From positions 1-56,431 of the forward strand of contig JBDHAL010000019.1 of NCBI GenBank assembly GCA_039588075.1: 56,431 nt of DNA. Reading direction: 5' to 3'. Of this stretch, positions 3,768 to 21,643 are shown in pieces. Positions within the stretch are counted from its first letter, which is position 1, and every line of letters starts with the position of its first letter. Source of the stretch: Gemmatimonadota bacterium (GTDB lineage Bacteria > Gemmatimonadota > Gemmatimonadetes > Palauibacterales > KS3-K002). Below the pieces are notes generated by a model. The model had not been told where the DNA came from, did no database searches, and saw only the letters and a program-made list of their open reading frames with translations. The position numbers were made by a program, and so were the translations under genes.

Positions 3768-4718
3768 TTAGCCGCCATCTGCTATACGCTCAACGATCAA
3801 CGGTACTGTCGTCCCGAGGTAGATGAGTGCGATCACCGGGATGAACAGGACCCGGGCTGTTACACCCATGGACAGTGCCAGTTCTCCGGGGAGCCCGTTG
3901 ATCACGAACAACAGTACCAGGGACCCTTCTGCGACGCCGATGCCCTGCGGTGCGATCGGCAGCGACGTTGCCAGTTGGATCAGCACCGACATCGATATTG
4001 CCATCACCATGTCGATCGAGACCCCGACGTTCATCGCGAGAAGCGAGATGGCGGTTCCGGCCAGCAGAGTCTTGAGCGCGGTGACTGCCAGATTCAGCGA
4101 CAGGCGCGCCTTTGATGTCCGTAGCAGCAGGTCGGTGTGTGCGCCGAACCCCTGCAGCAGCGCGGGCCATGGGCGGAGCACGAAACGGTTTACCAGGTTC
4201 CGAATTGTCTTGTTCGTCAGTATGAATGGGAGCAGCGCGACGGCGAACAGGGCTGCGACCACCGCGAGGTCTTTCGCTGTGGAAGAGTGAGTTGGCCAGG
4301 CGAGACGCAGGGCAATCGGCGTCATGAGGAGAAGGAAGAACAGCGTTATCAACCTGTCGACGACGATCGAGCTGGCGACCGCACCCGGACGATGGTGTTG
4401 CTTGAGTAAGGGGAGCGCGCCGAAGTCGGACAGCCGCGCCGGCGCGAATAGCGCCAGCGGCTGCATCGCCAGGAAGACGCGCGTCTGCGGCCAGAACGAC
4501 AGGCCTCGGTCCTGCGGCGGCCCGAGCAGGATGACCGGCGTCATCGCGTTGAGGACCTGGATGACGGCCTGTAACCCCATCACCGCGGCGAGCAGGTATA
4601 GCTTGCTGTGAAGCAGGGGCACGAACACGGCCTCGAGGTCGTATCGCGACAACAAGAACGCGATAACCGCGATTCCAAGGGCCGTGCCGGACCAGAATGC
4701 CAGACGCCGTGAGTTCAC
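3768..4718 (-). CDS. UPF0104 / LPG-synthase TM (flippase-like) membrane protein
   Basis: Multiple TM segments, PAR.SD and DR motifs, and the family-typical LPIAPQGIGVAE motif. Confidence 0.8.
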   Translation of the reverse strand: MNSRRLAFWSGTALGIAVIAFLLSRYDLEAVFVPLLHSKLYLLAAVMGLQAVIQVLNAMTPVILLGPPQDRGLSFWPQTRVFLAMQPLALFAPARLSDFGALPLLKQHHRPGAVASSIVVDRLITLFFLLLMTPIALRLAWPTHSSTAKDLAVVAALFAVALLPFILTNKTIRNLVNRFVLRPWPALLQGFGAHTDLLLRTSKARLSLNLAVTALKTLLAGTAISLLAMNVGVSIDMVMAISMSVLIQLATSLPIAPQGIGVAEGSLVLLFVINGLPGELALSMGVTARVLFIPVIALIYLGTTVPLIVERIADGG

Positions 4719-4763
4719 CCTACCCGCACGCGTGTGAGTCGCGAGAGCCTGCCTGTCTCACTC

Positions 4764-6938
4764 TCATTCATCTGCCATGAGCGCCTGCCTGAACTGGCGC
4801 AGGTCCACTGCTTCTCCGCTTCGAATGCTCTCCTGCGCCGCAAACATGCACAGGGTCGCCAGCGACGCCTGTCGCCAGGTCAGCAGCTTGTTCGGCTGCC
4901 CCCTGACCGCCGAGGCGAATTCCCTCAGCGCTTCCTTGTGACCCATCTGCCTGCGGGAGGCGCTGCCGAGCGAACGCTGCTTCTTGCCGTGGACGGTGAG
5001 TTTGGCGAAGTCGTCCAGAATGGCGACCTGGCCGGGCGCCAGGACCTGAATCCGCTCGCGCGGGAAGCCCGTGCCGCCGCTCTCGTTGAACACGACGTTG
5101 GCCACGGCGCCGTCGTAGTGAATCGTGACGGCGAAGTTGCATAATTTCCGCGGGTCTTCCGGTGCTTGGCCCAGCGACCGCGCGTAGACCGAAACGGGGT
5201 CACGGTCTATCAGGAGATGGCAAAGATCGATGAAATGCTCGCCTTCGCTAACGAGCCGCCCTCCGCCGTCCACTTCATCCAGGCTCCAGTGGTCCGGGGG
5301 AATCATTCGTTCGGCAACCGTATAGGTCACGGAGTGAGCTGGCTGTTCGAGCAGGTCGCGCAGCTTGTCCATCATAGGAGAGTAGCGGCGATTGAGGCCG
5401 AGCGTAAGCAGGATCGGCTCGTCGTCCATCATCCTGAGTATCTGCTTGAAGTCGTCGAGCAATGTGACGAGCGGTTTTTCGAGGAATACGGCTTTACCGG
5501 CCTCGATCGCCCCTCGAAGGTGCTCGAAGTGCTCCGGCTGGCTGGACGAGATGACGACGGCATCGGTACCGGGATCCTCGAGTACCTCCGATACGTCGGT
5601 GGTGACGACGGTCGCGCCGACGTTCTTGCCGACGAGGGTTGCGTTGACGCCGGTCGCCGAGGCCAGGCCTCTGATGTCGACATCGGGCATCGAGCGAAGG
5701 TTCGGGAGATGCGTGGCCAATGCGTGATTCCCACAGCCGATGATCGAGATTCCCAGCTTATCCGGATCCCTGGGCCGCGGGCGAACATCGATCGTCCTTC
5801 GCCGGTCCGGATTCTTCCCCGCTTCGTAATCGATCAATGCCGCGACTCCATCCAGCGTGCCCTCCCGGATAGCGTCGAAGGCGTCCTGGACTTTGTCGAT
5901 GGTGTAGGTGCCGGCGATCAGCGGTTCGGGGTCAACGGCACCCTGACCGACGAGTCGGATGAATTCGGCCAGGTTGCGCCTCTCGGTCCAGCGCACGTAG
6001 CCGAATGGGTAGTCGAGACGGCCTTTCTCGTAGCCGCGGTGATAGCTGCCCGGGCCGTACGCCCGTGAGTAGCGGAGATCGATTTCGTTGTAGAGGAAGC
6101 TCTTGGGATGGATGTCGAGCTTGACGTAACCGACGATGACGACGCGCCCCTGTTTCCGAGTGATTTCCATCGAATCGTTGATGATGCCGCTCGAATCGGA
6201 GCTCGCACAGATGATAGTGGCGTCGACGCCGTTCTTGCCCGTCGCATCCATGACATGGCGTTTCAGATCGACCTGCGCCGGATTGACGACGACGTCCACG
6301 CCGATGCTGCGGGCCAGTTCGTTACGCTCCTCGTTGACATCGATACCCACGACGACGCAACCCGCTGCCCTGGCGATCATCGCGCAGAGCTGCCCCAAGA
6401 GACCCATGCCGAATACCGCCACCGTCTCTCCGAATTGGATCTCCGCTCGGCGCAGCGATTGGGTCACGATCCCGCCGACCGTGACGAAGGCGGCGGACCG
6501 GAAGTCCGTATGCTCGGGAACCGGCACTATGTGATTGATAGTCGGAGCGACTATTTCCGCATGCCCCGTCGCCGCGTATGCGACCTTGTCCCCGACGTTG
6601 AATCCCTCCGCGTGTTCGCCGACCGCCAGTACGCGGCCCGCTCCACTGTAACCGATCTCGCGGGGAACGGTCATCTCGTGCCACACCCGGCGCGCCGTCT
6701 GAGTCAGCCCGGCAGACAGCACCGTCTGCTGCACTGCCTTGCGCATCCACGGGTCGGCTATCGTCTGCTTCACCAGCTCGGTCGGTGTTTTCGCCAGTGT
6801 GCTGGACTCGGTGCCCGAGCTGATCAGTGAAACGTGATTCTGAACCAGAACCTGGTCCGGGCCCAGCTGGGGCTCGGGAAGGTCGATGACGACTACCTTG
6901 CCTTTGCGGTCGATCACCCGTCTGACGATCTGTCTCAT
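4764..6938 (-). CDS. Bi-domain oxidoreductase (MDR-type dehydrogenase fused to Gfo/Idh/MocA)
   Basis: SLISSGTE, GYSGAG, GMGLLG, SRAYGPG.Y...YE..G.DYP.GYVRWTE.RN, then IIGCGN, EKP and NRRYSP. Typical of polysaccharide clusters. Confidence 0.88.
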   Translation of the reverse strand: MRQIVRRVIDRKGKVVVIDLPEPQLGPDQVLVQNHVSLISSGTESSTLAKTPTELVKQTIADPWMRKAVQQTVLSAGLTQTARRVWHEMTVPREIGYSGAGRVLAVGEHAEGFNVGDKVAYAATGHAEIVAPTINHIVPVPEHTDFRSAAFVTVGGIVTQSLRRAEIQFGETVAVFGMGLLGQLCAMIARAAGCVVVGIDVNEERNELARSIGVDVVVNPAQVDLKRHVMDATGKNGVDATIICASSDSSGIINDSMEITRKQGRVVIVGYVKLDIHPKSFLYNEIDLRYSRAYGPGSYHRGYEKGRLDYPFGYVRWTERRNLAEFIRLVGQGAVDPEPLIAGTYTIDKVQDAFDAIREGTLDGVAALIDYEAGKNPDRRRTIDVRPRPRDPDKLGISIIGCGNHALATHLPNLRSMPDVDIRGLASATGVNATLVGKNVGATVVTTDVSEVLEDPGTDAVVISSSQPEHFEHLRGAIEAGKAVFLEKPLVTLLDDFKQILRMMDDEPILLTLGLNRRYSPMMDKLRDLLEQPAHSVTYTVAERMIPPDHWSLDEVDGGGRLVSEGEHFIDLCHLLIDRDPVSVYARSLGQAPEDPRKLCNFAVTIHYDGAVANVVFNESGGTGFPRERIQVLAPGQVAILDDFAKLTVHGKKQRSLGSASRRQMGHKEALREFASAVRGQPNKLLTWRQASLATLCMFAAQESIRSGEAVDLRQFRQALMADE

Positions 6939-7729
6939 CTCTTGTTCGCCTCTTGTTCAGGGCGCCTCGCGGTCACGAGCACGCCCGCACCCCAGCGGGG
7001 TCGCGAAAACTTGCCTAGATAGGAGAGCCCCAGCAGAAAAGGGAAGGCCAGGGCGTAAAAGTGCTTGTTTCGTTTTTCAGCGCCGGAAATCAGGTACGAG
7101 ACATTGTTCGTGAAGGTCTCGAGCATCCCGTAGGTGTACCGGTGCTCGAGGACTTCCAGGCCCGCCTGTTCGAGCTTGCCCGTAATCTCCTCGGCTGTGT
7201 AGCCCGGTCGCATGTGGCCCGGCACGTCGAAGTTCACGCGTCGTCCCAACAGCAACCAGCGCCGGTAGTAACCCGGAACGTGCACCACCAGCCTGCCGCC
7301 CGGTCGCAGGGCCTCACGAAGGCGCTTCATCGCGCCTACGTCGTCTTCGATGTGCTCGAGGTTGTCGACGCTGATTACGAGATCGAACCGGCCCTCCAGC
7401 CCCAGCGACGTCACGTCGCCGATCTCGAATCGACAGTTGCTGATCCCTGCCCGGCTCGCGATGGTCGTCGCTCGGTTGACTGCCGCTTCGTCGATGTCGA
7501 CGCCCAGGACCTCGGCTTCCCTGTGTTGCTTTGCCAGTTGCATCGTGAATACGCCGGGACCGCTGCCGGCATCGAGGATCCTGTCGTACTCACCGCGCGC
7601 CGCCGGTAGCACGTGCCTCAGTCGGATACGCAGGCCGTTGACCGGAACTCCGAGCCAGCGAACGTATAGCCGCTCGAGGCGCGAGAGATCCGGATCTAAT
7701 GATTGCTCGGAGCCCGGGAATCCGATCAT
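6935..7729 (-). CDS. Class I SAM-dependent methyltransferase
   Basis: ILDAGSGPG motif I, FDLVIS..NLEHI, LRPGGRL. Start moved to ATG 7729, which overlaps the upstream stop (ATGA). Confidence 0.85.
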   Translation of the reverse strand: MIGFPGSEQSLDPDLSRLERLYVRWLGVPVNGLRIRLRHVLPAARGEYDRILDAGSGPGVFTMQLAKQHREAEVLGVDIDEAAVNRATTIASRAGISNCRFEIGDVTSLGLEGRFDLVISVDNLEHIEDDVGAMKRLREALRPGGRLVVHVPGYYRRWLLLGRRVNFDVPGHMRPGYTAEEITGKLEQAGLEVLEHRYTYGMLETFTNNVSYLISGAEKRNKHFYALAFPFLLGLSYLGKFSRPRWGAGVLVTARRPEQEANKR

Positions 7730-8964
7730 GTCGTATCGTTCCCGCACAGTTCCAGGTAGCAGCCGATGGCCTGGCCCATCCATGCCTGGCACCAGCGTAG
7801 CAGGCGGACCCGGGTGCGATAGAAGCGACGTCGCTGGTAGTAGAACCATCCGCTGCGTGGGTCGTACATGTTCTCCATCGTCCAGGTGAGCACCTTGCGC
7901 GAAAAAGCGCTGCCTTCGCCGAGCGCGCGGTCCGCCAGAGCGAACGTGATCACTCCCTGGGCGGCGCCGTGGATGTCAAAGGGGTACTTCCGGTCGTTCA
8001 TGAAACGGGGCGCGCCGTTCTCCTCGAATAGGTGCTCTCGGTAGTACCGCAGGCCTTTGAGGTATGCGCTCTGGAACTCGTCGCTCCGCGCCGACTGTCC
8101 ATAGGCGAGGATCGCGTCCAGAATAAATCCCGTGTGGTAGTTGTCGTGCGTTATGTGACTGGCGGACGGAGGCTCGGCGTAGAACCAGGCGCCGTAATCG
8201 GTCTGCTTGGAAACGACGTAGCGGATCAGCCGGGCCGCCTCGGCCATCAGGGCCTCGTCGCTGCTAATCGACGCGAGGCGGGCGGCGGCCGCGCCGGCCA
8301 GCGCCGGGACGTCCATCACGATCCAGGTCACCGACTCGCTCGGTACATAGCTGACGCAGCGGTGAAGGTCGTCCTCGTATAGCGTGTTGGGAGCCTCGAG
8401 GAGGAACTCGACCGCCTGACGCGCTACATCGAGGTAGCGTTCGTCCCCCAGCGTCTCATACCCGTCGAGGAACGCCTGGACGACAAAGGATGTCACCACT
8501 CGGTTCGGATAATGGCGGGAAGCGAAGAAGCCTACATCTTGCCACGGATAGGGGTATCCCCAAGCGGCCCAGGGGAAATCGCCGGAGGTCGAACCGGCCA
8601 GCCAGTCGAGCAATCTTCGTGCTTCTTCCGCGCTCTCCTCTTCTCCGCGGGTCCGGTAGCGACCGAGCAACGCCCGCGTGAACAGTGATAGGCCTTTAGC
8701 GTTGCGGGCCGTTCCGACGCCGATCAGCGGGCGCACGTGGATGGGTGAGCGCATGACCAGTTGGGTGAAGCCGAGGCGCATCCACTTCGACTCACCAGCC
8801 AACCGCTCCAGCCACGGCGCGTTGAGCGCGTCGTGTTTCGAGTGCCCCCTGTAGTCGACATCCAGAGCGCCGTTCAAGATGCGCTTCTGGACCGCAGCAA
8901 GCCCGGATTCGGGCATCGCGCTTGACTCGGCCGGGTTCAACGACAACACCGGAGGGGTTTCCAC
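7726..8964 (-). CDS. Conserved glycan-cluster protein with a predicted (alpha/alpha) barrel (epimerase/hydrolase-like), function unknown
   Basis: WGYPYPWQ, PNRVVT, QTDYGAWFY, HDNYHTGF, YPFDIHGAAQG and RWCQAW motifs resemble a hypothetical family recurrent in polysaccharide loci. Confidence 0.6.
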   Translation of the reverse strand: METPPVLSLNPAESSAMPESGLAAVQKRILNGALDVDYRGHSKHDALNAPWLERLAGESKWMRLGFTQLVMRSPIHVRPLIGVGTARNAKGLSLFTRALLGRYRTRGEEESAEEARRLLDWLAGSTSGDFPWAAWGYPYPWQDVGFFASRHYPNRVVTSFVVQAFLDGYETLGDERYLDVARQAVEFLLEAPNTLYEDDLHRCVSYVPSESVTWIVMDVPALAGAAAARLASISSDEALMAEAARLIRYVVSKQTDYGAWFYAEPPSASHITHDNYHTGFILDAILAYGQSARSDEFQSAYLKGLRYYREHLFEENGAPRFMNDRKYPFDIHGAAQGVITFALADRALGEGSAFSRKVLTWTMENMYDPRSGWFYYQRRRFYRTRVRLLRWCQAWMGQAIGCYLELCGNDTT

Positions 8965-8972
8965 GGAATCGG

Positions 8973-9965
8973 CTAGCGTGTCTCGTGAGTGCCCGGAGCG
9001 TCGGGCTCCGATCGTCGCGAGTCCATTGCCTCTTCGACTTTCTTCAGTCGCCAGTCGACCCCCTCCAGTAGTTTCCTGTTGACCGATATGAGGTCGGCTA
9101 TCAGGCCCACAACGGCCAGGAAGAACCCGGTTCCCATCAGCAACGCGGCAAGTATGAGTGATTGGATGTGGCCGCTTCCTCGGTCCGAGAAATAGAAGTA
9201 GAGAAAGCGCAGGCTGATCACGAAACCACCGCTGAACAGGATCAGGCCCTGGACGGCGAAGAAGCGGAACGGCTTGTAGGTCATGAAAATGCGAAGCATG
9301 GTCAGGATCTGGCGGTTTAGGTAGCCGGGTAGACTTCTCACCAGGCGCGACGGCCGCAGATCCTTGTTCGTCCTTACGGGGACGGACGTGATCGACATGC
9401 CTTTCTGGCCGGCCTGGATTATCGTCTCGATTGTGTACGTGTATTCGTTGAAGACGTGAAGCTTCATCGCTGCTTCGCGGCTCAATGCTCGGAATCCACT
9501 CGGCGCGTCTTGCACGTCGGTCCGACTGATGATCCGTGTAGCCCAGCTACCGGCCCGCTGGAGCAGCTTCTTCGCAGCCGAAAATTGCCTCATCTCGTTG
9601 ATCGGACGCGCGCCGACCACGATCTGGGCCTCGCCATTCAGGATTGGCTCGATCAGCTTGGGAATGTCCTCTGCACAGTACTGGTTGTCTGCATCCGTGT
9701 TGACGATGATGTCCGCGCCCGCCCTCAGCGACGCCTCGAGTCCTGCCACGAATGCCCGCGCCAATCCCTGGTGCCGCGGCAGGCGCACTATGTGGTCGAC
9801 CCCGCTCCGGGCGGCCACCTCCGCCGTTCCGTCCTCGCTGCCGTCGTCGATCACCAGCCACTCCACTTCGTCCACTCCCGGAACTGCCCGTGGTAAGGCC
9901 GAGAGCGTCACCGGAAGGCTCTCCTCCTCGTTGTAGCACGGGATCTGGACGATCAACTTCGCCAT
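8973..9965 (-). CDS. GT2 glycosyltransferase, DPM1-like (polyprenol-phosphate sugar synthase-type), two C-terminal TM helices
   Basis: IPCYNEE, IDDGSEDGT, NTDADNQY (DxD), VVGAR, D..SGFRA and a hydrophobic C-terminal hairpin. Confidence 0.85.
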   Translation of the reverse strand: MAKLIVQIPCYNEEESLPVTLSALPRAVPGVDEVEWLVIDDGSEDGTAEVAARSGVDHIVRLPRHQGLARAFVAGLEASLRAGADIIVNTDADNQYCAEDIPKLIEPILNGEAQIVVGARPINEMRQFSAAKKLLQRAGSWATRIISRTDVQDAPSGFRALSREAAMKLHVFNEYTYTIETIIQAGQKGMSITSVPVRTNKDLRPSRLVRSLPGYLNRQILTMLRIFMTYKPFRFFAVQGLILFSGGFVISLRFLYFYFSDRGSGHIQSLILAALLMGTGFFLAVVGLIADLISVNRKLLEGVDWRLKKVEEAMDSRRSEPDAPGTHETR

Positions 9966-12018: not shown

Positions 12019-13386
12019 GTGAACAATTCCAGCCCTAAAATCCTGATCGTTGATGATGAACAGGGCATTGTAGATACGCTGACGATCCTCCTCAAGCGGG
12101 AGGGCTTCGAGGTGGTCTCTGCTCTTTCGGGCGCCGATGGCATCGAAAAGCTCGGGGAGCAACCCGACGTCGTATTGACCGACATCAGGATGCCCAAGGT
12201 GAGTGGAATCGACGTCCTCTCTGAGGCGCGTGCCAGGCATCCGGATGTGCCCGTCGTGCTGATGACCGCGCAGGCGTCACTGCAGTCGGCTATTCAGGCG
12301 GTCAACCAGGGTGCCTTCTACTACATCCAGAAGCCGTTTACGAATGACGAGTTGCTTGCCATCCTGCGTCGGGCGGCGGATTTCGGTAGGGTCACTCTGG
12401 AAAACCGCTCGCTCAAGCGGGAGATTCGCAAGCGAGATCGCTCGTCGCATTCCAGGCCGATCGGTCGCTGCCAGAATTTCCTCGACGCTCTCCAGGTCGC
12501 CGAGACTGTCGCGCCCACTGAGTCAACCGTTCTGATCCAGGGCGACAGCGGAACAGGCAAGGAAGTCCTCGCGCGCTTCGTCCACGAACTGTCGCAACGC
12601 TCCGAGAATTTGTTCCTGAGCATCAATTGCGGCGCTCTCCCCGAGAGCCTTCTCGAGTCCGAGTTGTTCGGCCATGTGAAGGGAAGTTTCACCGGGGCGC
12701 ACCGCGACAAGCAGGGCCTGTTCCTCGCGGCGAACGGCGGCACCCTGTTCCTGGACGAAGTGGGAGAGATGGTTCCTGCCACACAGGTCAGGTTGCTTCA
12801 TGTCCTCCAGCAACACGAGGTGATCCCCGTGGGCGCCACGGAACCGGTTAAGGTCGATGTTCGTATCATAGCCGCCACGAACGCCGATCTCGAGGAGCAG
12901 ATTCGCCAGGGCAATTTCCGCAGCGACCTTTTCTATCGGTTGAATGTGATCGCGCTCAACCTGCCTCCACTATGCGAGCGGCGCGATGACATCCCCTTGC
13001 TCGCCGAGAACTTCCTAAACCGATTCGCCAGCCGTCGCGATGCGGATCCGCTGCGACTCACGGAAGAAGCACTCGATGCTTTGCTCGCATACGATTGGCC
13101 GGGCAACGTGCGGGAACTGGAAAACGCGCTCGAGCGGGCCGTGGCTATGGCTCAGAGCGAGGTGATCGACAGGGATGTCCTGCCCAAGCGCGTGATCGAG
13201 CCGCAGCCCGTTCCCCTCGTGACCCAAGGTCAACCGGAGAACCCGCCGCTCGAGATCATCGAGCGCGCCTACATCGAGTGGGTCCTGAAGACGGAGGGTG
13301 GCAACAAGACGAGGGCCGCGGAAGTACTCGGTATCGACCCTTCCACGCTCTATCGCAAGCTGGCCCGGTTTGAGTCGGAGAGCTGA
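12019..13386 (+). CDS. pilR: PilR-like sigma54-dependent response regulator
   Basis: REC domain (VDDE, TDIRMP), [38 protein letters not shown] and Fis HTH. Confidence 0.8.
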   Translation: MNNSSPKILIVDDEQGIVDTLTILLKREGFEVVSALSGADGIEKLGEQPDVVLTDIRMPKVSGIDVLSEARARHPDVPVVLMTAQASLQSAIQAVNQGAFYYIQKPFTNDELLAILRRAADFGRVTLENRSLKREIRKRDRSSHSRPIGRCQNFLDALQVAETVAPTESTVLIQGDSGTGKEVLARFVHELSQRSENLFLSINCGALPESLLESELFGHVKGSFTGAHRDKQGLFLAANGGTLFLDEVGEMVPATQVRLLHVLQQHEVIPVGATEPVKVDVRIIAATNADLEEQIRQGNFRSDLFYRLNVIALNLPPLCERRDDIPLLAENFLNRFASRRDADPLRLTEEALDALLAYDWPGNVRELENALERAVAMAQSEVIDRDVLPKRVIEPQPVPLVTQGQPENPPLEIIERAYIEWVLKTEGGNKTRAAEVLGIDPSTLYRKLARFESES

Positions 13387-13396: not shown

Positions 13397-15381
13397 CTAC
13401 CCGGCTTCCGCCTCGGTCTGGGCGTCGGTTCCGTCGCGAAGCCGCAGGATCGTAAAGCCGCGTTCCCGGTAGACCGGTGTCAAGCACCTCTGGACGAAGG
13501 CCGGGAAGGAGTCGATGCCGAGAGTCTGCGGCTCCGTGCCGCGGAGGATGTAGTAGCGGGCTGCCAGGTCGCTAACCACGACATGAGTGATTCCAGATCC
13601 CTCGAGACAGCCGGTGTCGGCCTCCGCCAGCGGAGCGAGAAAGGCCCAGTTGGTCAGCACGTTGTCCTGGATGACTTGGGGCTCGAAGTAGTACCCGCGA
13701 GCCTCGAACAGGAGAAGCACTCGCGCGTTCTCCGGCACCAGGCGGTTCGTCGCTTCGGTGAGTCGGTAGTAGTACGTGAAACCCGTCTCGAGGTACCGGT
13801 TCTCTGATACGGTGCCGGCGAAGTAACCCAGAACCTGGCTTTTCCTGAACCAGAAGTGCATCGATTTCGCGGAGGGATACAAGACCAGAACACACAAGCA
13901 GACGAGGAGCAACCGAGCCGCCCCGGCCGAAAAGAAGCGTTCGCTGGTTCGCGCGGCCACCAGAACGGCGACTACGGTGAGGGGTGCGACGGCCGGAAAG
14001 AGATACCGCAAGTTCGTAGCCGGGAACGGGATCAGGATCAGAAGCAGGTAGCAGAGCGGGGGAACCAACAGCCAGATCACCGTTCGGTTTCGGATGAACG
14101 CGATCGAGAGCGGGAGAAGAAGATAGAGCATGTTCATGTGGTAGTACGCGCCTTCGGGCTCCACCGTTAGGCGCCCCGGTGCGATGAACAGGTCTATCAG
14201 GTTGAAATGGAGGCGAGCCTGCGCCAGCGCGCTGAGCGCTTGGACGTTTACTACATCGGGAATCGCGGAGGTGCCGTAAAGGGAAGCCAGCCACGGCTGT
14301 AGCTTCAACTGCGAGAACAGCGGGTACAGCGGAGCCCCGATGACGATCCAGTTCTTCACCAACCACGGGGCTCCGGCGGCAACGGCCAACAGAGCGAACA
14401 GTGACAGGGGTCGGATCGAGGCGCCAAGCGAACGGCAATGGGAACGTGCCGTCCAGATGATCAGTGGGCTGAGGGCGGCTGAGTAAGCCAGTGCGTGGTA
14501 CTTCGTACCGATGGCGAACCCGAGAATCAGGCCGGACAGGTAGAACAGCGACAAACGCGAGGGCTCCGCTAGCGCGATCAGCAGCGCGTACTGAGCCATG
14601 AATAGGTAGAACGCCAGCGTTACATCGATCCGGGGGGTGATGGCGACGAGCAGGATGCCGGTCGTTGCCCAAAGTTGTGTCAGGCTGAGGCTGGCGGTCG
14701 CGCCGCCGAAGAACCGTGCCGCAAGCGAGAACATGGCGAGCGCCAACAGAAGCGCGAAGCACGTGGGAGGAAGACGCGGCCTTCCTCGAGGAATAGGCGC
14801 GGCACCTCCAGGTGGTACATCAGGCTGTCCCAGTCGGCCGGCGGAGCACTGGCCTGGATCGCGAGAGCGATGGCGACGACGCCGAACACGATCGCAGCGA
14901 GTATCAAGTAGGCCGGGTGTTCGCTCTGAGATCTCACCTGGCCGATGGCTCGCGCCCAAAGACTTGGAAGCTCAGCGAGTTCGCGTCGCGCGGTCGCGGC
15001 CGCGACGATAGGAACGAGAATGACGACGGGCCCGTTCAGAACGGAGGCCAACCCGCAGGCGAGGTAAGAGGTGGAGATGAGCGCCGCGCCGACGGCGGTG
15101 CAAAACCCGATTTCCTCCAGCGGTTGCTCCCACGCCAGTCGGAAGCGGGCGAGAACGAATCGGCCGATGGCGGTGGACGCGGCCAGCAGCAGGACGGCGA
15201 CGAAGATACCGAAGACGTGGTCAAAAACGGCGAGCGGGCCGGTGTAGGTGGCGCCTTCAGGTTGCAGGTAAAAGTGGACGGCACCCGTAACGAGAAAGAG
15301 AGCCGCGGCGAGAGGACCTGCCGGACGAAGGCGTCGGGGGCGCTCGACGTTGCTCGAACTGCTCTGAGGGTCGGGGGCCAC
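13397..15381 (-). pseudogene. GT-C-fold (ArnT/GT39-like) membrane glycosyltransferase split by a frameshift near 14765
   Basis: N-half (ORF 14680..15381) is polytopic and ends with DWDSLMYHLEVPRLFLEEGRVFLP. The hydrophobic sequence continues in another frame (ORF 13397..14959) as TCFALLLALAMF..., then GTKY, PWLVKNW...GAPLYP and RYLFP. Confidence 0.75.
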
Positions 15382-15506: not shown

Positions 15507-17564
15507 ATGTTGATGGCCCCTAGTCGGTCTGGGTGGCTCAAGTTCGCTTTGCCGGGGCTGGCAGTTGCGCTCGGCCTGTTGGCTTTCTTGCCCTGGGCGA
15601 GTTGGCTGGGCTTCGCCGGGTCGATCGAGATGGCGGCTTATCGGACCGTGCTTAGAGAGTGGAGCCTCTGGACGTTGGCGATAGTCGCCGGTGCGCTACT
15701 CGCGGCCCGGGTTTCGGGCGGACGGGTTGGTGAACGACTCGACGGCTTGCAGGTCAAGCTCGAAGCCATCCCCGGTCGTAGCTTCGTGGCCGTGTCGGCC
15801 ATCGCCGTCCTGCTGGCGGCCTGCCTGTTGTCGGAAGCGTTGTTCGCTCGCCTTCCGCATCACGTCGACAGCATCGCCCAACTCTTCCAGGCGCGGATTC
15901 TCACGCGCTTCCACCTGACGGCGCCGGCGCCGGTGTCGTACGAGTTCTTCGCGTTCACTAACTCGGTGCTGCACGAAGGCCGCTGGTTCTCCCAGTATCC
16001 TCCCGGTCACCCGGGACTGCTCGCCGTCGGGATGCTGCTCCACGCCCAGTGGCTGGTGAACCCGCTGTTTTCGGCCGGCACGGTGATACTTCTCTACGGA
16101 GCGGCACGCCGTCTACTCGGTGAGGGTAGCGCCAGGCTCGCGGCGGTACTTTACGCCATCTCGCCGTTTGTGCTCTTCATGAGCGCGAGCCACATGAACC
16201 ACGTGACGGCGGCGTTCTTTCTCGCCTTGGCCCTATACGCCAACACGCGGGCGACTGGAGGCGAGCGAGAGCTCCGCTGGCCGCTGGTGTTAGGGGTCGC
16301 CCTTGCGATCGCCGGCACTATTCGCCCGCTCGATGCTCTAGCATGGGCTGCGGTGCTGGGCAGCTGGTTATTGATCGAGCGCGGTTGGAGGGTTGCGCTC
16401 ATCGCGGGAGCCGTCTGTGTGGCCGGGCTGTTGCCTCTCTTTGCTTACAACGGACTGACCACCGGGAATCCGCTTCGCTTCGGCTATACACTCTTGTGGG
16501 GATCCGGTCATGGACTCGGTTTCCACATCGATCCATGGGGCGAGCCCTTCACGCTCCTGAGATCGCTCGCGGAAACGGCGTCCGACTTCCAGTTATTTAA
16601 TGCGGCTTTGTTCGGCTGGCCGGTCCCATCGTTCGTATTGCTGATTCTGGCGCTCGTGGCGGCTGGCACCGACCCGCGCTTGCGCAAAGCGTGCGCTCCG
16701 CTGATCGCATTGCTGTTGGTCGTACCGCTGGGGTATTTCTTTTACTGGCACAGGGATCAGTTCCTCGGACCTCGCTTCCTGTATGCGTCGATCGTTCCGG
16801 CGGTCATGCTGAGTGCGGCCGGGATCGCCGCGGTCGATCGGCGGTTGGGGCACTGGCGCGAGGCCTTCCGGATGGCTCTGCTCGCGAGCCTGTTCATCGG
16901 GCTGGGCGTCAAGTTTCCGGTCACCGCCGGGACGCTCGCCGGGTTGAACCCCGAATTCAAGTTTCGTCCAGAGGAACAGGCGCGGCAGGCCGGCCTGAGC
17001 GATGCCGTCATCTTCGTGAAGGTCGGTTGGGGCACTCGATTGGTGGCACGCATGTGGGGCTGGGGCATCTCAGCACCTGAGGCGGAGCAGACGTATCGCA
17101 CGGTCGACGGATGCCGGCTGCAGATCGCGCTCGACGAAGCTGACTCACTCGCCCTGGCCGGGGCGGATTCGGCTCGGGTTCGGCAAGAATTGGAGCAGCG
17201 GCTCGGTGAGTGGCGCGGCGAGAGGCTGCCCGTGATCCGGGGTTATTTCCCCGACCCAAGCGTTCGAGTTGACACAACACACCCGATTGTTGCTCGCTGT
17301 CGACAAGAGCTAGAGCTGGACCTGACGGGCTACACTCACTACGCGACTCTCGTGTGGCGCAACGATCCCTGGCTGCAGCGCGGATTGGTGTTCGCTCGAC
17401 TTCTCGACCCGGCACGCAACGAGATGCTGATGGCTCGATATCCGGATTTCGATCATTTCCTCTACGCTCCGGCGGCACCGGAGCGCGGAGTTCGACCGGA
17501 TCTCCGGCGACTGCGTGAGGAGAAGCCCGAGATGCCCGATGCCGAAGCAGAGGGCGGCAGATGA
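15507..17564 (+). CDS. GT-C-fold (ArnT/PMT-like) membrane glycosyltransferase
   Basis: Many TM helices; first-loop PHHVDSIAQLFQA, GRWFSQYPPG, SPF, RPLDA, GPRFLY; soluble C-terminal domain. Confidence 0.75.
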   Translation: MLMAPSRSGWLKFALPGLAVALGLLAFLPWASWLGFAGSIEMAAYRTVLREWSLWTLAIVAGALLAARVSGGRVGERLDGLQVKLEAIPGRSFVAVSAIAVLLAACLLSEALFARLPHHVDSIAQLFQARILTRFHLTAPAPVSYEFFAFTNSVLHEGRWFSQYPPGHPGLLAVGMLLHAQWLVNPLFSAGTVILLYGAARRLLGEGSARLAAVLYAISPFVLFMSASHMNHVTAAFFLALALYANTRATGGERELRWPLVLGVALAIAGTIRPLDALAWAAVLGSWLLIERGWRVALIAGAVCVAGLLPLFAYNGLTTGNPLRFGYTLLWGSGHGLGFHIDPWGEPFTLLRSLAETASDFQLFNAALFGWPVPSFVLLILALVAAGTDPRLRKACAPLIALLLVVPLGYFFYWHRDQFLGPRFLYASIVPAVMLSAAGIAAVDRRLGHWREAFRMALLASLFIGLGVKFPVTAGTLAGLNPEFKFRPEEQARQAGLSDAVIFVKVGWGTRLVARMWGWGISAPEAEQTYRTVDGCRLQIALDEADSLALAGADSARVRQELEQRLGEWRGERLPVIRGYFPDPSVRVDTTHPIVARCRQELELDLTGYTHYATLVWRNDPWLQRGLVFARLLDPARNEMLMARYPDFDHFLYAPAAPERGVRPDLRRLREEKPEMPDAEAEGGR

Positions 17565-19183
17565 GGGCTTCGCTCACTTCCGATCGGGCGATGAGAATCG
17601 CGGTGGCCCTCGGCGTCGGGGTCGTCGTCGCGGCAATCGGCATGTGGGCGCAGAACGGATCGCTGGTCGGCGTAAACGTGGATGACGGCTTCTATGTCCT
17701 TTTGGCGAAAGCGCTGGCGGAGGGCGAGGGATACCGGCTGACCTACCTGCCCGTCAGCCTACCGGGCGTCAAGTACCCGCCGGTCTATCCATTGAGTTTG
17801 GTGCCCTTCTGGACCTTCGTTGGATCTCAGAGCGCCGCCCTCTATGCCATGAAGCTGGCCAACGGTCTGTACATCGGCCTGGCCGCAGGCCTGTTCGCGC
17901 TCCTGCTCATCGACCTGCGCTTGCTCTCCGTCCCGCTGGCTGGACTCGTGGCGCTGGTCGGGTTCGCGTCGGGCTCCGTCATGCTGGTGACCTCCGGTCT
18001 GCTGTCGGAGCCGCTCTATCTGGTCTTGCTGGTCCTCGCGCTGTGGCTGACCGATAGGCTTCGTGAGCCGGTCGCCACATGGCAATTGGCCGCCGTGGGC
18101 GTACTGGCGGCCGGCGTGGCTCTAACGAGGACCGTCGGCGTCGCCCTGGTCGGTGCGGTTCTACTGGCGACCTGGAAGCGCTTTGGTACGCGGCGGATGC
18201 TGACGGTGGCAGCGGCAGCCGCGATCACCCTCACACCGTGGATCATCTTTTCGCACATCGGGTCCAGTCAGATCCCGGATGTACTGAAATCCAATTATGG
18301 ATCTTACCTGCAGCTGTATCTGCTCAACCTCCAGGGCTCACCGCTGTCGGTGTTTGAGATCGCCTCCGTCAACCTGGACGCCATGCTCGAGACGTTTGGC
18401 GCCAAGATCCTTCCGCTTCGCGGCCTGATTCCTCGAATGCTGGCGGCCGCGGCATTCATCGCTTTTGCGATCGGCGGATCCAAGAAGGTTTTCCAAAACG
18501 CGACGGCTCTGGCCATTTATCCCTGGCTCTACCTCGCTCTGGTGCTGATCTGGTCGTTCCCGCCGTTTCGCTTCGTGTTCGCGATCTTTCCCTTGCTTCT
18601 GGCGCTGGCGGTCATCGGGTTCTGGTCGCTGGCGGATACGCTTGGGAATGCCGATGCGCCGCGGGGAGGGGGTGCCTTGGACCAGAAGCGACGTCAACTT
18701 CTTCGCCGGCTCGCCCTGGCTGTTGGGTTGCTCGTCTTCGCCAACATCGCTTTTCGCGAGGGCCGGTCGCTTGTGCGCAGGGTCTGGGACGGTGCGCAGT
18801 TGCACAAGTCCGCCGTCAGCGCCGAGGTCATTGACTGGGTGCTCGCGAACACCGATTCCAGTACCGTGATTGCTTTTGAGTTCGACGCCTTGATCGCGCT
18901 GCACACCGGTCGCCCGGCCGTTCCCAACAGCAACGACCCCGTCCACATCTGGTATCGTCGAACCGACGCCCCGGCCGCGGCAACGGCGCGGCTGCTCAGC
19001 GAGATGAACGTGACGTACCTGGCGGTCAGGCGGGACGTTCCGGCGGCAGTAGCACCTATCGAAACGTTGATGGAGGTCTATCCGGGCAGCCTGGAGCTGA
19101 TACACGTGACTCCAGGGGCGGCATTGATTCTCGAAGCGAACCTGGATGCGTTGAAAACCGAGGAGCGAGGAGTGATCTGGTGA
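17561..19183 (+). CDS. GT-C-fold membrane glycosyltransferase
   Basis: First-loop acidic motif VDDGFYVLLAKALAEGEGY, KYPPVYP, LLSEPLY, LTRTVG; many TM helices; ATGA-coupled to the previous gene. Confidence 0.75.
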   Translation: MRASLTSDRAMRIAVALGVGVVVAAIGMWAQNGSLVGVNVDDGFYVLLAKALAEGEGYRLTYLPVSLPGVKYPPVYPLSLVPFWTFVGSQSAALYAMKLANGLYIGLAAGLFALLLIDLRLLSVPLAGLVALVGFASGSVMLVTSGLLSEPLYLVLLVLALWLTDRLREPVATWQLAAVGVLAAGVALTRTVGVALVGAVLLATWKRFGTRRMLTVAAAAAITLTPWIIFSHIGSSQIPDVLKSNYGSYLQLYLLNLQGSPLSVFEIASVNLDAMLETFGAKILPLRGLIPRMLAAAAFIAFAIGGSKKVFQNATALAIYPWLYLALVLIWSFPPFRFVFAIFPLLLALAVIGFWSLADTLGNADAPRGGGALDQKRRQLLRRLALAVGLLVFANIAFREGRSLVRRVWDGAQLHKSAVSAEVIDWVLANTDSSTVIAFEFDALIALHTGRPAVPNSNDPVHIWYRRTDAPAAATARLLSEMNVTYLAVRRDVPAAVAPIETLMEVYPGSLELIHVTPGAALILEANLDALKTEERGVIW

Positions 19184-21024
19184 GGAGTGAAGGGATGTCT
19201 CCGAAGCGTTTGAAGATTCTGCTCGCGACCCTGGTGGCATTGGCCGCCATCCTGGTCTATGCGAATTCGCTGGGGAATGATTTCGCATACGACGATGACG
19301 GCGTCATCTACAATCGAGAGTCGGTCCATGGTCTGAGCAACCTCCCAGAACTCCTGGTCGAGCCGTACTGGCCCGAACCCATGTTCGATGAGGAGCTGTA
19401 CCGTCCGTTGATCCTGCTGACCTACGCCGTCGACTGGAAAATCTGGAACGGGAAGCCATTCGGCTTTCACCTGGTCAACGTCTTACTGCACGCGGCCGTC
19501 AGCGTTCTCCTGGCCCTGTTGCTGCTCCGCTTCTTCTCTTGGAGGGGCGCCCTCGCCGGCGGCCTGATCTTCGCCGTTCACTCCGTTCACACGGAAGCCG
19601 TCGCCAACATCGTTGGCCGTGCAGAACTGATGGTGGCGTTCTTCGCCCTGATCGCCGCTCTCATCTACACGCGGTCGGTCAGGGACGGCCGCATCTCGGC
19701 CCGCTGGGTCGCTCTGATCGTCCTGTGTTACGTGCTGGCGAGCTTCTCGAAGGAGCTTGGCGTTGTCATCCCGGGTCTACTTCTGGCGACCGATCTGCCA
19801 TTGATCGGTCGCCGGCAGGCCGGGACGCTGAAGCAGTTCGTGCGGGTCCGGCTGCCCCTGTTCGTCGTCCTGACGGCGACCCTGGCCGGTTATCTCGTGA
19901 TCCGCTGGGCGGTGCTCGGCGCGTCGGTTGAGAGCGTGCCGGACCGCATCTTCGCGATCGACAATAGCTTTGCCACGCGCTTCTTCACGATGTCGAGGGT
20001 TTGGGTTCGGTACGTCAATCTGTTGCTGTTCCCGCTCGACCTCTCGGCGGACTACAGCCCCGCGGTCATTCTACCGGCCGAGCACCTGACCGGTCTCGGC
20101 GTGGTCGGCATCGCCGTCGTTCTCGGATCGGCCGTCGTGTCGGTCGCCAGCCTGCGCAAGTTTCCGGAGATCGGGATGGCCGCTCTTTGGATAGCCATCG
20201 CGCTGCTTCCCGTGTCGAACCTGGTTATCACGGCGAACATCGTCTTGGCCGAGCGCACGCTCTACCTGGCGTCGGCGGCGGTGTCATTCCTGGCGGCGCT
20301 GCTGCTCGAGAGGGCGGCCCCTGCCTATCGCCGGTTCGTGGCCATCGGCATGGCTCTGTGGATCGTAGGCTTCTCCATCGTCACTGTGCGGCGCAACCCG
20401 GTTTGGGAGAATACAGACACGGTGTTCGAGGACCTGCGTCGCAATCACCCTGAGTCTTCGCGGCTGCTCTACGGCATCGGACTCACTTATGACATGCGCG
20501 GTGAGTGGGACGAGGCGGTCAAGTGGTACCGAAAATCCCTGGCCATATGGCCCTACGCAAAGACGCACCTGAGACAGTTCACCCGCAATCTGTATGAGCG
20601 TGGCCAGTACGAGGAGGCTGCCTACTGGACGCGCATCGCACTTCAGATTCAGCCAGAAAAGCTCCGACATCACTACGTCCTCTCGCTTTGCCTGGTGCGC
20701 GGAGGTGACCCGACCGGCGGTCTCGAGGCGATCGAACGGGCCTTCGCCATCGTCGGGCCGAACGCCGCCCTCTATACCCTGCAGGCCGAGGCCTACGCCC
20801 AGCTCGGCGATCTGGAACGCGCGGTGCTCGCGCAGGAGGCCGCCGTCAGGGGCCGCAGGCCGGAACCTGATTGGGAGTCTTGGCACCGGTTGGCCTCACT
20901 GCGGGCCCAAGCGGGCGACACCGTGGCGGCCCTCATCTACCTGGAGCAGGCCCGGCGGTCCGAAGGTGCCGATCCGCTGGTCGCTGACTCGCTGGAGGCC
21001 GAGTGGCGTGGCCTAATCCGTTGA
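19180..21024 (+). CDS. TMTC/DUF1736-like protein O-glycosyltransferase with C-terminal TPR repeats
   Basis: YANSLGNDFAYDD, YRPL, FHLVNVLLHA, FAVHSVHTEAVANIVGRAEL, SKELG, LSADYS, AERTLYL, RNPVW, then TPR helices. These match the conserved TMTC motif order. Confidence 0.85.
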   Translation: MRSEGMSPKRLKILLATLVALAAILVYANSLGNDFAYDDDGVIYNRESVHGLSNLPELLVEPYWPEPMFDEELYRPLILLTYAVDWKIWNGKPFGFHLVNVLLHAAVSVLLALLLLRFFSWRGALAGGLIFAVHSVHTEAVANIVGRAELMVAFFALIAALIYTRSVRDGRISARWVALIVLCYVLASFSKELGVVIPGLLLATDLPLIGRRQAGTLKQFVRVRLPLFVVLTATLAGYLVIRWAVLGASVESVPDRIFAIDNSFATRFFTMSRVWVRYVNLLLFPLDLSADYSPAVILPAEHLTGLGVVGIAVVLGSAVVSVASLRKFPEIGMAALWIAIALLPVSNLVITANIVLAERTLYLASAAVSFLAALLLERAAPAYRRFVAIGMALWIVGFSIVTVRRNPVWENTDTVFEDLRRNHPESSRLLYGIGLTYDMRGEWDEAVKWYRKSLAIWPYAKTHLRQFTRNLYERGQYEEAAYWTRIALQIQPEKLRHHYVLSLCLVRGGDPTGGLEAIERAFAIVGPNAALYTLQAEAYAQLGDLERAVLAQEAAVRGRRPEPDWESWHRLASLRAQAGDTVAALIYLEQARRSEGADPLVADSLEAEWRGLIR

Positions 21025-21180: not shown

Positions 21181-21197
21181 CTGGTCCCGATCTTGCC
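21181..21197 (+). promoter_or_regulatory. sigma54 -24/-12 promoter of pilA (CTGGTCCCGATCTTGCC)
   Basis: TGG-N10-GC with TTGC at -12, about 65 bp before a strong RBS/ATG (AAGGAGG). Consistent with PilR control. Confidence 0.7.
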
Positions 21198-21262
21198 CAT
21201 GAGTGGGCGGAAGGTAGTCTGAATAGGATCTACCGCGGTAGTGACTCACAAAGGAGGACTAG

Positions 21263-21643
21263 ATGGTACGGAACACTAAGGGCTTCACCTTGATCGAGCT
21301 GCTGATCGTGGTGGTGATCATCGGCATTCTGGCCGCGATCGCCATCCCGAAGTTCGCGAACACCAAGGAGAAAGCTTACGTCTCGGCGATGAAGTCGGAC
21401 TTGCGGAACCTGGCGGCTGCTGAGGAGGCGTATTTCGCCGACTACCTGCAGTACTCGAGCACGGCCGGGATCGACTTCAACCAGACCAAGGGTGTCACGG
21501 TCACGGCGACGGGTGACGGCACGGGCTGGCAGGCGACTGCCACGCACAGCGGCGTCAGCACGGCGGGCTTCGACTGTGAGATCTATTATGGAGCAGCGGG
21601 CAGCAGCGGTGCTCCCACCGAGGGTGTGATCGACTGCGGCTAA
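21263..21643 (+). CDS. pilA: Type IVa major pilin
   Basis: Class III signal KG|FTLIELLIVVVIIGILAAIAIP (E5, P22), C-terminal Cys pair, own promoter, RBS and terminator. Confidence 0.92.
   Translation: MVRNTKGFTLIELLIVVVIIGILAAIAIPKFANTKEKAYVSAMKSDLRNLAAAEEAYFADYLQYSSTAGIDFNQTKGVTVTATGDGTGWQATATHSGVSTAGFDCEIYYGAAGSSGAPTEGVIDCG

Follow-up and report, generated by a model that had tools for sequence, protein, structure and literature searches.

We report that four membrane proteins of the glycosyltransferase C (GT-C) type, here named GTC1 to GTC4, are encoded by a bacterium of the Gemmatimonadota within its type IV pilus locus, between the regulatory gene pilR and the major pilin gene pilA, and that the linkage of one of them, GTC4, to pilA is conserved across the phylum. 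The locus lies in a stretch of 56,431 nucleotides (nt), hereafter the window, which represents contig JBDHAL010000019.1 (C19 in our numbering) of assembly GCA_039588075.1, an assembly of 349 contigs that is 93% complete. We regard as the probable explanation of this arrangement a periplasmic pilin glycosylation system that uses polyprenol-phosphate sugars, is similar to the system of the Pseudomonas enzyme TfpW and is equipped with extra GT-Cs.

Open reading frames (ORFs) of the window were scanned for Pfam and NCBIfam families (Table 1). Along the window, a row of minus-strand sugar genes (427-9965) is followed by pilS, pilR, the four GT-C genes, pilA, a kinase/activator pair, minor-pilin-like genes and pilMNO(P)Q, the last of which ends at 32314. 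The assignment of all four proteins to the GT-C enzymes is supported, for GTC3 and GTC4 by fold and for GTC2 and GTC1 by family and profile, in agreement with an earlier reading of the DNA made from its letters alone (the sequence-only reading), which had placed four such proteins between pilR and pilA. Each of the four has a polytopic N-terminal membrane module of about 11-13 helices, as judged by hydropathy in all cases and by the helix lists of the AlphaFold2 (AF2) models for GTC3 and GTC4. All four likewise have an acidic motif in the loop that follows transmembrane helix 1, namely DWD in GTC1, D121 in GTC2 (invariant, n=17), D41 and D42 in GTC3 (invariant, n=55), and D38 and D39 in GTC4 (invariant, n=63). 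Enzymes of this type would take their sugar from a polyprenyl-phosphate- or polyprenyl-diphosphate-linked donor.

Profile searches against proteins of solved structure detected no GT-C enzyme (only tetratricopeptide repeat (TPR) proteins for GTC4, a best E value of 0.07 for GTC3, and nothing for GTC2), so that a fold search was needed. The AF2 model of GTC3, built from a 55-sequence alignment, reached a mean predicted local distance difference test score (pLDDT) of 93.9 and gave 35 Foldseek matches in the PDB at E<=1e-3; those listed, all GT-C enzymes, include the oligosaccharyltransferase OST/STT3 of yeast and human, ArnT, DPY19, AglB, PglB, AftA/B/D, Emb and ALG9/12. GTC3 has 87 detectable homologues, which are also without a family and are called hypothetical. 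For GTC2, the nearest Atlas (language-model) clusters are named 'ArnT family glycosyltransferase', and hhalign shows it to be homologous to the GTC3 family (probability 91%, E 1e-6). The same comparison was weak for GTC4 (probability 8.8% with GTC3 and 2% with GTC2), which places GTC4 in a separate subfamily, on a distant branch.

The profile and structure searches that the sequence-only reading had proposed thus recovered PMT_2 in GTC2 and the GT-C fold in GTC3 and GTC4, whereas DUF1736 on GTC4 stayed below its cut-off. Its description of three coupled genes pointing at pilA was also borne out: GTC2 and GTC3, and GTC3 and GTC4, overlap by 4 nt each (ATGA, GTGA), and the GTC2/GTC3 overlap recurs in 9 of the 13 orthologous loci (longest-ORF calls). 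GTC1 is oriented opposite to these three. The coordinates given for the four genes were confirmed, with the qualification that GTC1 is broken in the assembly, where about 97 bases are missing.

In a stop-to-stop reading, GTC1 is split over two frames, one with the N-terminal 200 residues including the DWDSLMYH loop and the other with the rest. Its orthologues are single ORFs of 680-742 amino acids (aa), compared with which the window copy lacks about 34 residues after that loop; the PMT_2 score of the window copy falls short of the cut-off of 26.1 bits, whereas the intact orthologue L029:13698-15767 scores 39.1 bits. When the interval 14300-15300 was compared with contigs of other public sequencing runs, all four matching contigs left the window at exactly 14763. 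Two of them (95-99% alike) span this position with about 97 extra letters, the third shows no mismatch over 188 bases and then a 97-letter loose end, and the fourth has a 62-letter loose end. Since 97 bases equal 32 codons plus one base, their absence explains both the gap and the frameshift, and we read the break as an assembly artefact or a minority variant or deletion. A true pseudogene of the lineage was rejected because the missing stretch is present in contigs of four public runs. Among the public runs none was listed as RNA, and none held more than 0.14 of the sampled words.

GTC4 combines a GT-C domain with a C-terminal TPR domain. Its AF2 model (63-sequence alignment) has a pLDDT of 94.3. 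Foldseek on the whole model returned TPR proteins only, and the GT-C domain emerged through VIA-align, in which residues 4-425 were compared with 48,161 chains and GT-C enzymes ranked first: AglB (Z 19.6), STT3B (18.7), ALG12 (18.4), Pmt1-Pmt2 (18.0), ArnT (18.0), PglB (17.3) and Pmt4 (17.1). These alignments cover 321-353 residues at 4.3-4.8 Å, with Z values above about 14, the level typical of this tool for helical models. The TPR domain is recognized by Pfam TPR families at residues 415-601 and by TPR structure matches, and the 11 helices together with a Lys/Arg-rich N-terminus predict that it faces the non-cytoplasmic side.

In its catalytic motifs GTC4 resembles the eukaryotic TMTC enzymes, in which seven motifs have been described as lining the metal and dolichyl-phosphate-mannose sites, among them DD (M1), (S)HKSYRP (M2), RxD (M3), KE(T/Q)xxT (M4), a DW in loop 4, and ERxxY (M7) (PMC7801869). 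GTC4 carries D38-D39, Y74-R75-P76 (the YRP part of M2 only), R147-x-E149, K191-E192, D291-Y292 (DY for DW) and E358-R359-x-x-Y362 (ERTLY). All of these are invariant in the 10 orthologues of the family, and most are invariant or at least 90% conserved in the 63-sequence alignment, R147 being in neither list; the positions of the phosphate-binding motifs (KE, ERxxY) are conserved. The view of GTC4 as a TMTC-like enzyme, already advanced in the sequence-only reading, therefore agrees with its retention of the TMTC ligand motifs. Because Pfam TMTC_DUF1736 scores 23.9 bits, under the curated cut-off of 27, GTC4 is TMTC-like and is not filed as a TMTC member, and in a precomputed table only 2 of the 120 GTC4 homologues listed carry PF08409. 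Homologues of GTC4 are numerous (1100 at E<=1e-5 among 8000 scored candidates), and those that carry a name in their source are called 'tetratricopeptide repeat protein' or sometimes PilF or TadD.

The linkage of these genes to pilA was followed in a family sample of 24 genomes, a wider related set of 41 genomes and two samples of the phylum. Homologues of GTC2 occur in 38 of the 41 related genomes, including 21 of the 24 of the family. Of 14 family loci, 13 have GTC2, GTC3 and GTC4 next to one another, the exception being a partial second copy in one genome. GTC3-GTC4 without GTC2 occurs in one genome. Wherever the DNA continues, pilA, pilS2 and pilR2 come after GTC4 (10/10 family loci; three end first). 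Between pilR and GTC2, where GTC1 stands in the window, nine family loci have an extra GT-C of about 585 residues. Further variants are one locus with two copies of this protein, two loci with tandem GTC2, and one with an extra GTC3-like gene upstream of pilS. The second locus of genome G010 (L009) holds a full GTC2 paralogue (57% identity to the window GTC2), a 70-residue GTC3 fragment and a 36-residue pilR fragment; lying beside GT2 and DegT fragments, this partial cassette looks like a duplication remnant. Among six loci of the sister family, one has a GTC2 homologue between two pilin genes after pilS-pilR and one has it beside pilMNOQ; no pilus genes were seen at the other four.

At the level of the phylum, one genome per species was searched with the GTC4 alignment as query, and the best 80 of 593 relatives gave 78 loci (31-58% identity), whose names are Gemmatimonadota, Gemmatimonadales, Gemmatimonadaceae or Longimicrobiales in all but three or four; the resulting figures describe the orthologous group and not every TMTC-like gene. 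In 57 of the 62 assessable loci the last GTC4-like gene is followed by a pilA homologue in the same orientation, at a median distance near 300 nt and in 53 of these 57 within 1.4 kb. The conserved linkage that the sequence-only reading had asked a synteny survey to look for was thus found in the family and in the phylum alike. Upstream, pilR is present in 49 of the 78 loci, and a same-strand gene of glycosyltransferase family 2 (GT2) in 36. The number of GT-C matches per locus is one (20 loci), two (22), three (24), four (11) or five (1). Outside the family of the window the usual order is pilS-pilR-GT2-GTC4(x1-3)-pilA(x1-2)-pilS2-pilR2; the GT2 of locus L051, for instance, has 289 residues and best matches to AglJ, ArnC and PpgS.

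An even sample of the phylum (61 genomes, one of them marked unpublished) was searched for the GTC4-type domain and for PilM. The former was detected in 38 genomes and the latter in 59, so that GTC4 is an accessory of the pilus locus and not part of its core machine, as a modifier would be. In 17 of the 38 genomes one contig carries both, no more than 13 kb apart.

The product of pilA has a G/FTLIE prepilin motif, and its globular part contains 24% Ser+Thr and a C-terminal Cys pair. The gene starts 238 nt after GTC4, and a terminator scan of 20900-21760 gave no site between the two and one weak site within the end of pilA. The sigma-54-type element TGG-N8-TTGC upstream of pilA precedes 44 of the 128 pilin-sized ORFs in the window and 98 loci, a set in which some genomes are counted twice, against a background of 0.016 per 260 nt; 42 of the 44 sites fall 83-109 nt before the codon of the G(-1) cleavage site. 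By this pattern pilA has a sigma-54-type promoter of its own, as expected for a PilR target. Ten more pilA-like genes occur elsewhere in the genome (contigs C22, C14, C21, C13, C194, C95, C12, C36, C145 and C69), with 29-55% identity to the pilA of the window, and none is on a contig with a GT-C match to the queries used.

Divergently from pilS runs a minus-strand row of genes that starts with a GT2 and includes, five genes further downstream, a protein of the UPF0104 family. This operon, with a DPM1-like GT2 and a UPF0104 protein, had been recognized in the sequence-only reading, and family matches confirm both genes at their positions. The assignment of the GT2 to the polyprenyl-phosphate-sugar synthase type is supported by its best NCBIfam matches, namely AglJ (1.2e-28), PpgS (7e-19) and ArnC (1.2e-14), all of which lie below the equivalog cut-offs; two C-terminal hydrophobic helices are found at residues 237-255 and 271-289. 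The UPF0104 protein matches TIGR00374 ('flippase-like domain') with 33.6 bits, below the cut-off of 43.2. The GtrA family (PF04138) was not found in the 93%-complete genome, and none of GtrA, SMR and MATE was found in the window, SMR and MATE not having been searched genome-wide; the failure to find a GtrA-family protein leaves UPF0104 as the flippase candidate. As in the sequence-only reading, no Wzy_C, Wzx or Wzy family was seen in the window, among the 44 ORFs scanned; three Wzy_C proteins are encoded elsewhere in the genome (contigs C31, C134 and C22).

The row continues beyond the window, whose first 114 nt match exactly the end of another contig of this genome, C65. The NDP-hexose 2,3-dehydratase gene spans this break, and its orthologue L029:6786-7586 matches Pfam PF03559 at 2e-60. 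Contig C65 (L034 7830-14498) carries pilB, pilT and pilC, then an asparagine-synthase-type amidotransferase, DUF354, RmlB, RmlA and a GFO-type oxidoreductase, and the overlap implies that about 14 genes in a row separate pilC from pilS. The gene set for dTDP-linked sugars, with its 2,3-dehydratase, suggests a sugar of the 3-amino-2,3,6-trideoxyhexose type, which would be unusual for a surface glycan. Within the row, unk412 may be an (alpha/alpha)6-barrel sugar epimerase or hydrolase-like enzyme; a sequence search of structures returned no solved relative for it, and its Atlas feature neighbours (GH88, GH127 and C5-epimerase-like clusters at 0.97-0.98) provide a lead only. The 724-residue double-oxidoreductase fusion is conserved at 80% identity in L032.

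Sugar islands of differing content, bounded by pilB-pilT-pilC, are present in all nine family loci fetched upstream of pilS. Orthologues of the window GT2 (E<=1e-40) occur in only 8 of the 24 family genomes, adjoining the locus in all five cases that could be checked, and the UPF0104 protein has an orthologue in one of five genomes checked. The order GT2-unk412-UPF0104 is kept in L029. In four other loci GTC1 has as its neighbour at this position a different GT2 (24-26% identical), in one of them together with a methyltransferase and a sulfotransferase, and a fifth has another GT2 with a PMT_2-like protein where the pilC-pilS island stands. These counts led us to reject the operon as an obligatory partner of the GT-C cassette: it is a variable module. 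By analogy with O-antigen or pilin-glycan diversity, the pattern resembles a variable glycan island attached to a constant transferase. The pilC-pilS space of L024 (13837-16868) and L025 (770-4960) encodes methyltransferases, a sulfotransferase, a different GT2 and more PMT_2-like proteins, a content that suggests methylated or sulfated sugars in some lineages.

Away from the pilus genes, contig C102 (L035 460-11309) of the same genome encodes a PMT-like GT-C, a GT2, an LPG_synthase_TM protein, a YfhO-like protein of 822 aa, a GT4, a UDP-GlcNAc 2-epimerase, a second PMT_2 GT-C and a second GT2, and this cluster adjoins rpoN and an LptB-like ABC ATPase.

Table 1. Annotated features of the window, in order of position
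Feature	Position	Strand	Basis
NDP-hexose 2,3-dehydratase, N-terminal part, running off the window start	1..393	-	tblastx to L029:6786-7586; rest on C65
DegT/DnrJ/EryC1-type sugar aminotransferase	427..1566	-	Pfam PF01041, E 7e-81
GNAT acetyltransferase	1680..2381	-	Pfam PF00583, E 1.3e-5
GT4 (GT-B fold) cytoplasmic glycosyltransferase	2511..3731	-	Pfam Glycos_transf_1, E 8.9e-19
UPF0104 / LPG_synthase_TM membrane protein, candidate lipid flippase	3768..4718	-	Pfam PF03706, E 7.2e-21
Fusion of zinc-alcohol-dehydrogenase-type and GFO/IDH/MocA-type oxidoreductases, 724 aa	4764..6938	-	Pfam PF00107, PF01408
S-adenosylmethionine-dependent methyltransferase	6935..7849	-	Pfam Methyltransf_31, E 3e-23
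unk412, soluble protein of 412 aa without a family	7726..8964	-	no Pfam/NCBIfam match
GT2 of GtrB/ArnC/AglJ/DPM1 type, candidate polyprenyl-phosphate sugar synthase	8973..9965	-	Pfam PF00535, E 9e-22
pilS-type histidine kinase	10230..11990	+	Pfam HATPase_c, HisKA, PAS; weak 6TM_PilS match
pilR-type sigma-54 activator	12019..13386	+	Pfam Sigma54_activat (E 1.7e-67), Response_reg, HTH_8
GTC1, GT-C glycosyltransferase	13397..15381	-	PMT_2, 24.2 bits; split at about 14763 in the assembly
GTC2, GT-C of ArnT/PMT_2 type, C-terminal domain of about 200 aa	15507..17564	+	PMT_2, 43.2 bits, E 6e-11
GTC3, GT-C with small C-terminal alpha/beta domain	17561..19183	+	fold; no Pfam family
GTC4, GT-C domain (about 4-425) fused to C-terminal TPR domain (about 411-614)	19180..21024	+	AF2, VIA-align, Pfam TPR
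Sigma-54-type -24/-12 element, TGG-N8-TTGC	21182..21196	+	upstream of pilA, conserved
pilA, type IVa major pilin, precursor of 126 aa	21263..21643	+	translation, Pfam N_methyl, alignment
Second histidine kinase and sigma-54 activator pair (pilS2/pilR2)	21681..24407	+	Pfam; kept after pilA across phylum relatives
Minor-pilin-like genes and pilM, pilN, pilO, (pilP), pilQ	24577..32314	+	Pfam PilM_2, PilN, PilO, Secretin; prepilin motifs

The kinase/activator pair that comes after pilA has a parallel in the pilS2/pilR2 pair of Myxococcus. The two ORFs directly 3' of pilQ (32350-34958), which encode 337 and 534 residues, gave no match in Pfam or NCBIfam.

We propose the following model. Enzymes of the pilC-pilS island (RmlA, RmlB, the NDP-hexose 2,3-dehydratase, the DegT aminotransferase, the GNAT enzyme, the oxidoreductases and the methyltransferase) would, judging by their families, make unusual nucleotide sugars. 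The GtrB/ArnC/AglJ-like GT2 would load a sugar on polyprenyl phosphate, and the lipid-linked sugar would then be flipped across the membrane, possibly by the UPF0104 protein. In favour of UPF0104 in this role are the failure to find a GtrA-family protein in the genome, the recurrence of the GT2, UPF0104 and GT-C trio on C102, and the prediction of that trio for protein glycosylation in archaea. In the periplasm, GT-Cs would transfer the sugar from the lipid. GTC4, the constant member, would most likely recognize the membrane-anchored pilin and glycosylate its Ser/Thr residues, and the variable set formed by GTC1-GTC3, together with the further GT-Cs of relatives, might extend the glycan or add sugars at other sites. 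A more elaborate scheme, which we entertain only tentatively, has an oligosaccharide built stepwise on pilin outside the cytoplasmic membrane by a relay of three to five GT-Cs, each fed with a polyprenyl-phosphate monosaccharide, the TMTC/TfpW-like TPR enzyme acting as the starter and the UPF0104 (MprF-type) protein as the flippase. Such a relay, if real, would be a prokaryotic counterpart of the lumenal dolichyl-phosphate-sugar reactions of the eukaryotic endoplasmic reticulum, and here it would include a sugar of the 3-amino-2,3,6-trideoxyhexose type.

Several points weigh against pilin glycosylation as the function of the locus. Pilin is a candidate acceptor, proposed from folds, motifs and gene order, and the model leaves the role of the GT4 unexplained. 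The 78-locus survey leans towards orthologues; five of its 62 assessable loci have no downstream pilA, although L058 among them has GTC4-GTC4-pilA-pilA on the opposite strand, and in the even sample 22 of the 59 PilM-bearing genomes gave no GTC4 match. With a sigma-54-type promoter of its own, pilA would not require co-expression with the GT-C genes. On the donor side, the patchy occurrence of the GT2 and UPF0104 orthologues has been described above, and the UPF0104 proteins for which the literature considered here gives experimental data, MprF and that of gpgSDF, act on phospholipid derivatives. The presence of a GT2, UPF0104 and GT-C trio on contig C102 shows these to be general envelope tools in this organism, and the three Wzy_C proteins encoded elsewhere could be ligases or en-bloc oligosaccharyltransferases.

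The GT-Cs might instead modify a non-protein envelope glycan, such as lipopolysaccharide core or lipid A, an exopolysaccharide or a wall polymer, their place in the pilus locus then being a matter of co-regulation or history, as with ArnT, Gtr* and YfhO-type enzymes elsewhere. GTC2 and GTC1 are indeed of ArnT/PMT_2 type, the cluster on C102 adjoins rpoN and an LptB-like gene, the island resembles an O-antigen-type sugar pathway, and most of the three-component systems known to date modify polysaccharides (PMC11127046). We nevertheless consider this reading unlikely: the position between pilR and pilA is kept across the orders of the phylum (57/62) while the sugar genes change, GTC4 has a protein-binding TPR domain together with TMTC-type motifs, and TfpW, the only characterized GT-C encoded beside pilA, acts on pilin according to its preprint. 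A similarly low probability is assigned to a general protein O-glycosylation of PMT/TMTC type, with many periplasmic or surface clients among which pilin would be one or not the main one. A dedicated client is favoured by the placement of GTC4 immediately beside the major pilin gene across much of the phylum, and tandem GTC4 genes often go with tandem pilA genes, though not one to one. For a broader role speak the sets of proteins served by TMTC and PMT enzymes (PMC7801869), the availability of about ten pilA paralogues and several minor pilins as possible clients, and the GTC4 homologues without a nearby pilin (L073, L082, L110 and contig C305).

That GTC4 could be a pilus assembly factor acting through its TPR domain, in the manner of PilF/PilW/Tgl, with a vestigial GT-C domain, is hinted at by public annotations naming some homologues PilF or TadD and by PilW among the TPR structure matches (Z 12.7). 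We hold this to be very improbable, since the motifs for catalysis and for binding of the lipid phosphate show little or no variation, no match to GTC4 was obtained for 22 of the 59 genomes with PilM, and GTC4 is a polytopic membrane protein, not a lipoprotein. Another view concerns only the divergent island, which may have been merely inserted as a separate pathway for a glycolipid (gpgSDF-like, glucosamine-phosphatidylglycerol) or a polysaccharide, the GT-C donors coming from other GT2s. It is compatible with pilin glycosylation by the GT-Cs, and we think it possible, if on the whole doubtful. In gpgSDF a GT4 and a UPF0104 protein are described as acting on phosphatidylglycerol (PMC12713373), the window GT4 likewise abuts UPF0104, and the island varies between genera, with GT2 orthologues in a third of the family genomes. 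Yet the order GT2-unk412-UPF0104 is kept in L029, a GT2 of the polyprenyl-phosphate type stands at this place in every upstream locus annotated, Pfam reveals no GpgD-like deacetylase in the window, and in archaea UPF0104 with a PMT/STT3-like GT-C and an AglD-like GT2 has been linked by prediction to protein glycosylation (PMC5898192).

Pilin glycosylation by TfpW-like and additional GT-Cs, our preferred explanation, would bear on processes of some importance, because pilin glycosylation affects phage resistance, adhesion and pilus behaviour. For the GT-C route to it, the known examples are one Pseudomonas enzyme and a few homologues in proteobacteria. Here a GT-C/TPR enzyme, in one to three copies and accompanied by other GT-Cs and by polyprenyl-phosphate sugar synthases, belongs regularly to the pilus locus throughout a poorly studied phylum. 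Our literature searches on pilin/TMTC, Gemmatimonadetes type IV pili, TfpW and PMT_2/ArnT found no description of this arrangement in the literature covered. New are the phylum-wide fixation of the GT-C/pilA arrangement, the arrays of TPR-bearing and TPR-less GT-Cs, the pairing with GtrB/DPM1-type synthases and not with an arabinofuranose pathway, and UPF0104 as candidate flippase. The loci offer a natural series for asking how GT-C/TPR enzymes choose their protein acceptors, and they open a first way to the function of the many bacterial proteins that are labelled 'tetratricopeptide repeat proteins' but are in reality TMTC-like glycosyltransferases. With their help it can also be asked whether UPF0104 proteins flip polyprenyl-phosphate sugars, and such enzymes may find use in periplasmic glycoengineering.

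Among known systems, TfpW is the nearest; in its logic our system follows three-component periplasmic glycosylation, and in enzyme type it resembles TMTC. Pilins are commonly glycosylated by TfpO/PglL, which belong to the Wzy_C proteins and transfer oligosaccharides en bloc from undecaprenyl diphosphate, in contrast to the window, where no Wzy_C gene is present among the scanned ORFs, the three of the genome lying elsewhere. In the actinobacterial Ppm1/Pmt pair, Ser/Thr residues are glycosylated by way of polyprenol-phosphate-mannose; Pmt, which belongs to GT39, has MIR-free loops, lacks a TPR domain and is not known to be linked to pilus genes. In archaea, neighbourhoods of UPF0104, a PMT/STT3-like GT-C and an AglD-like GT2 have been predicted to serve protein glycosylation, with UPF0104 as the flippase (Makarova et al. 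2015; PMC5898192). The same three families meet here, and the best NCBIfam match of the window GT2 is the archaeal AglJ; unlike that neighbourhood, which is itself only predicted, the present one is bacterial, belongs to a type IV pilus locus and has its UPF0104 gene apart, several genes away from the GT2.

Three-component systems consist of a polyprenyl-phosphate sugar synthase, a flippase and a GT-C transferase that acts outside the membrane (PMC11127046). With GtrA/GtrB/Gtr*, ArnC/ArnEF/ArnT, CsbB/GtcA/YfhO and the GT136 pentofuranose systems our locus shares this logic and a GT2 of the GtrB/ArnC type, whereas the likely acceptor here is a protein, the flippase candidate is of the UPF0104/MprF type and not a GtrA, SMR or MATE protein, and several GT-Cs are arrayed. 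The TMTC1-4 O-mannosyltransferases of eukaryotes resemble GTC4 in architecture, with TPR repeats placed on the non-cytoplasmic side after about 11 transmembrane helices, and in motifs M1, M2 (YRP part), M3, M4, M5 (as DY) and M7, with a fold as in Pmt1-Pmt2 and ArnT. The donor lipid of GTC4 would differ, being a bacterial polyprenol and not dolichol, and its client would be pilin and not cadherins.

TfpW is described in its preprint and in PMC11841053 as a GT-C that is encoded next to pilA and modifies pilin with sugar from a lipid-linked donor, and the preprint gives this gene neighbourhood for several species. According to the same preprint, the enzyme, which acts on the group IV pilin of P. 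aeruginosa, uses a polyprenyl-phosphate-linked sugar, needs a small flippase-type partner, and suffices for polymerizing D-arabinofuranose and transferring it to pilin from the lipid-linked precursor; its loop 1 carries DDX, its loop 4 carries the proline-rich YX6PFX7P, and a periplasmic TPR domain is predicted at its C-terminus. A GtrA-type counterpart of that partner was not found in our genome. The linked donor gene here is a GtrB/DPM1-type GT2, whereas the TfpW system relies on a DprE1/DprE2/PRTase route; the ALO domain is linked to DprE1, and neither an ALO-domain (DprE1-like) protein in the 93%-complete genome nor a DprE1, DprE2 or phosphoribosyltransferase family in the window was found. 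The gene order differs as well, GTC4 being upstream of pilA and tfpW downstream, and one to three TPR-bearing GT-Cs with up to three TPR-less ones stand here against a single enzyme in Pseudomonas. In architecture the two are close, by the published features of TfpW: GTC4 has the DDX motif (D38-D39-D40), the TPR domain and the adjacency to pilA, and its loop 4 reads Y278-x6-P285-L286-x7-P294, with L in place of F. The sequence-only reading had cited TfpW as a single-enzyme precedent; the DDX loop 1 and predicted C-terminal TPR domain of TfpW bring the Gemmatimonadota system closer to it than that reading had supposed.

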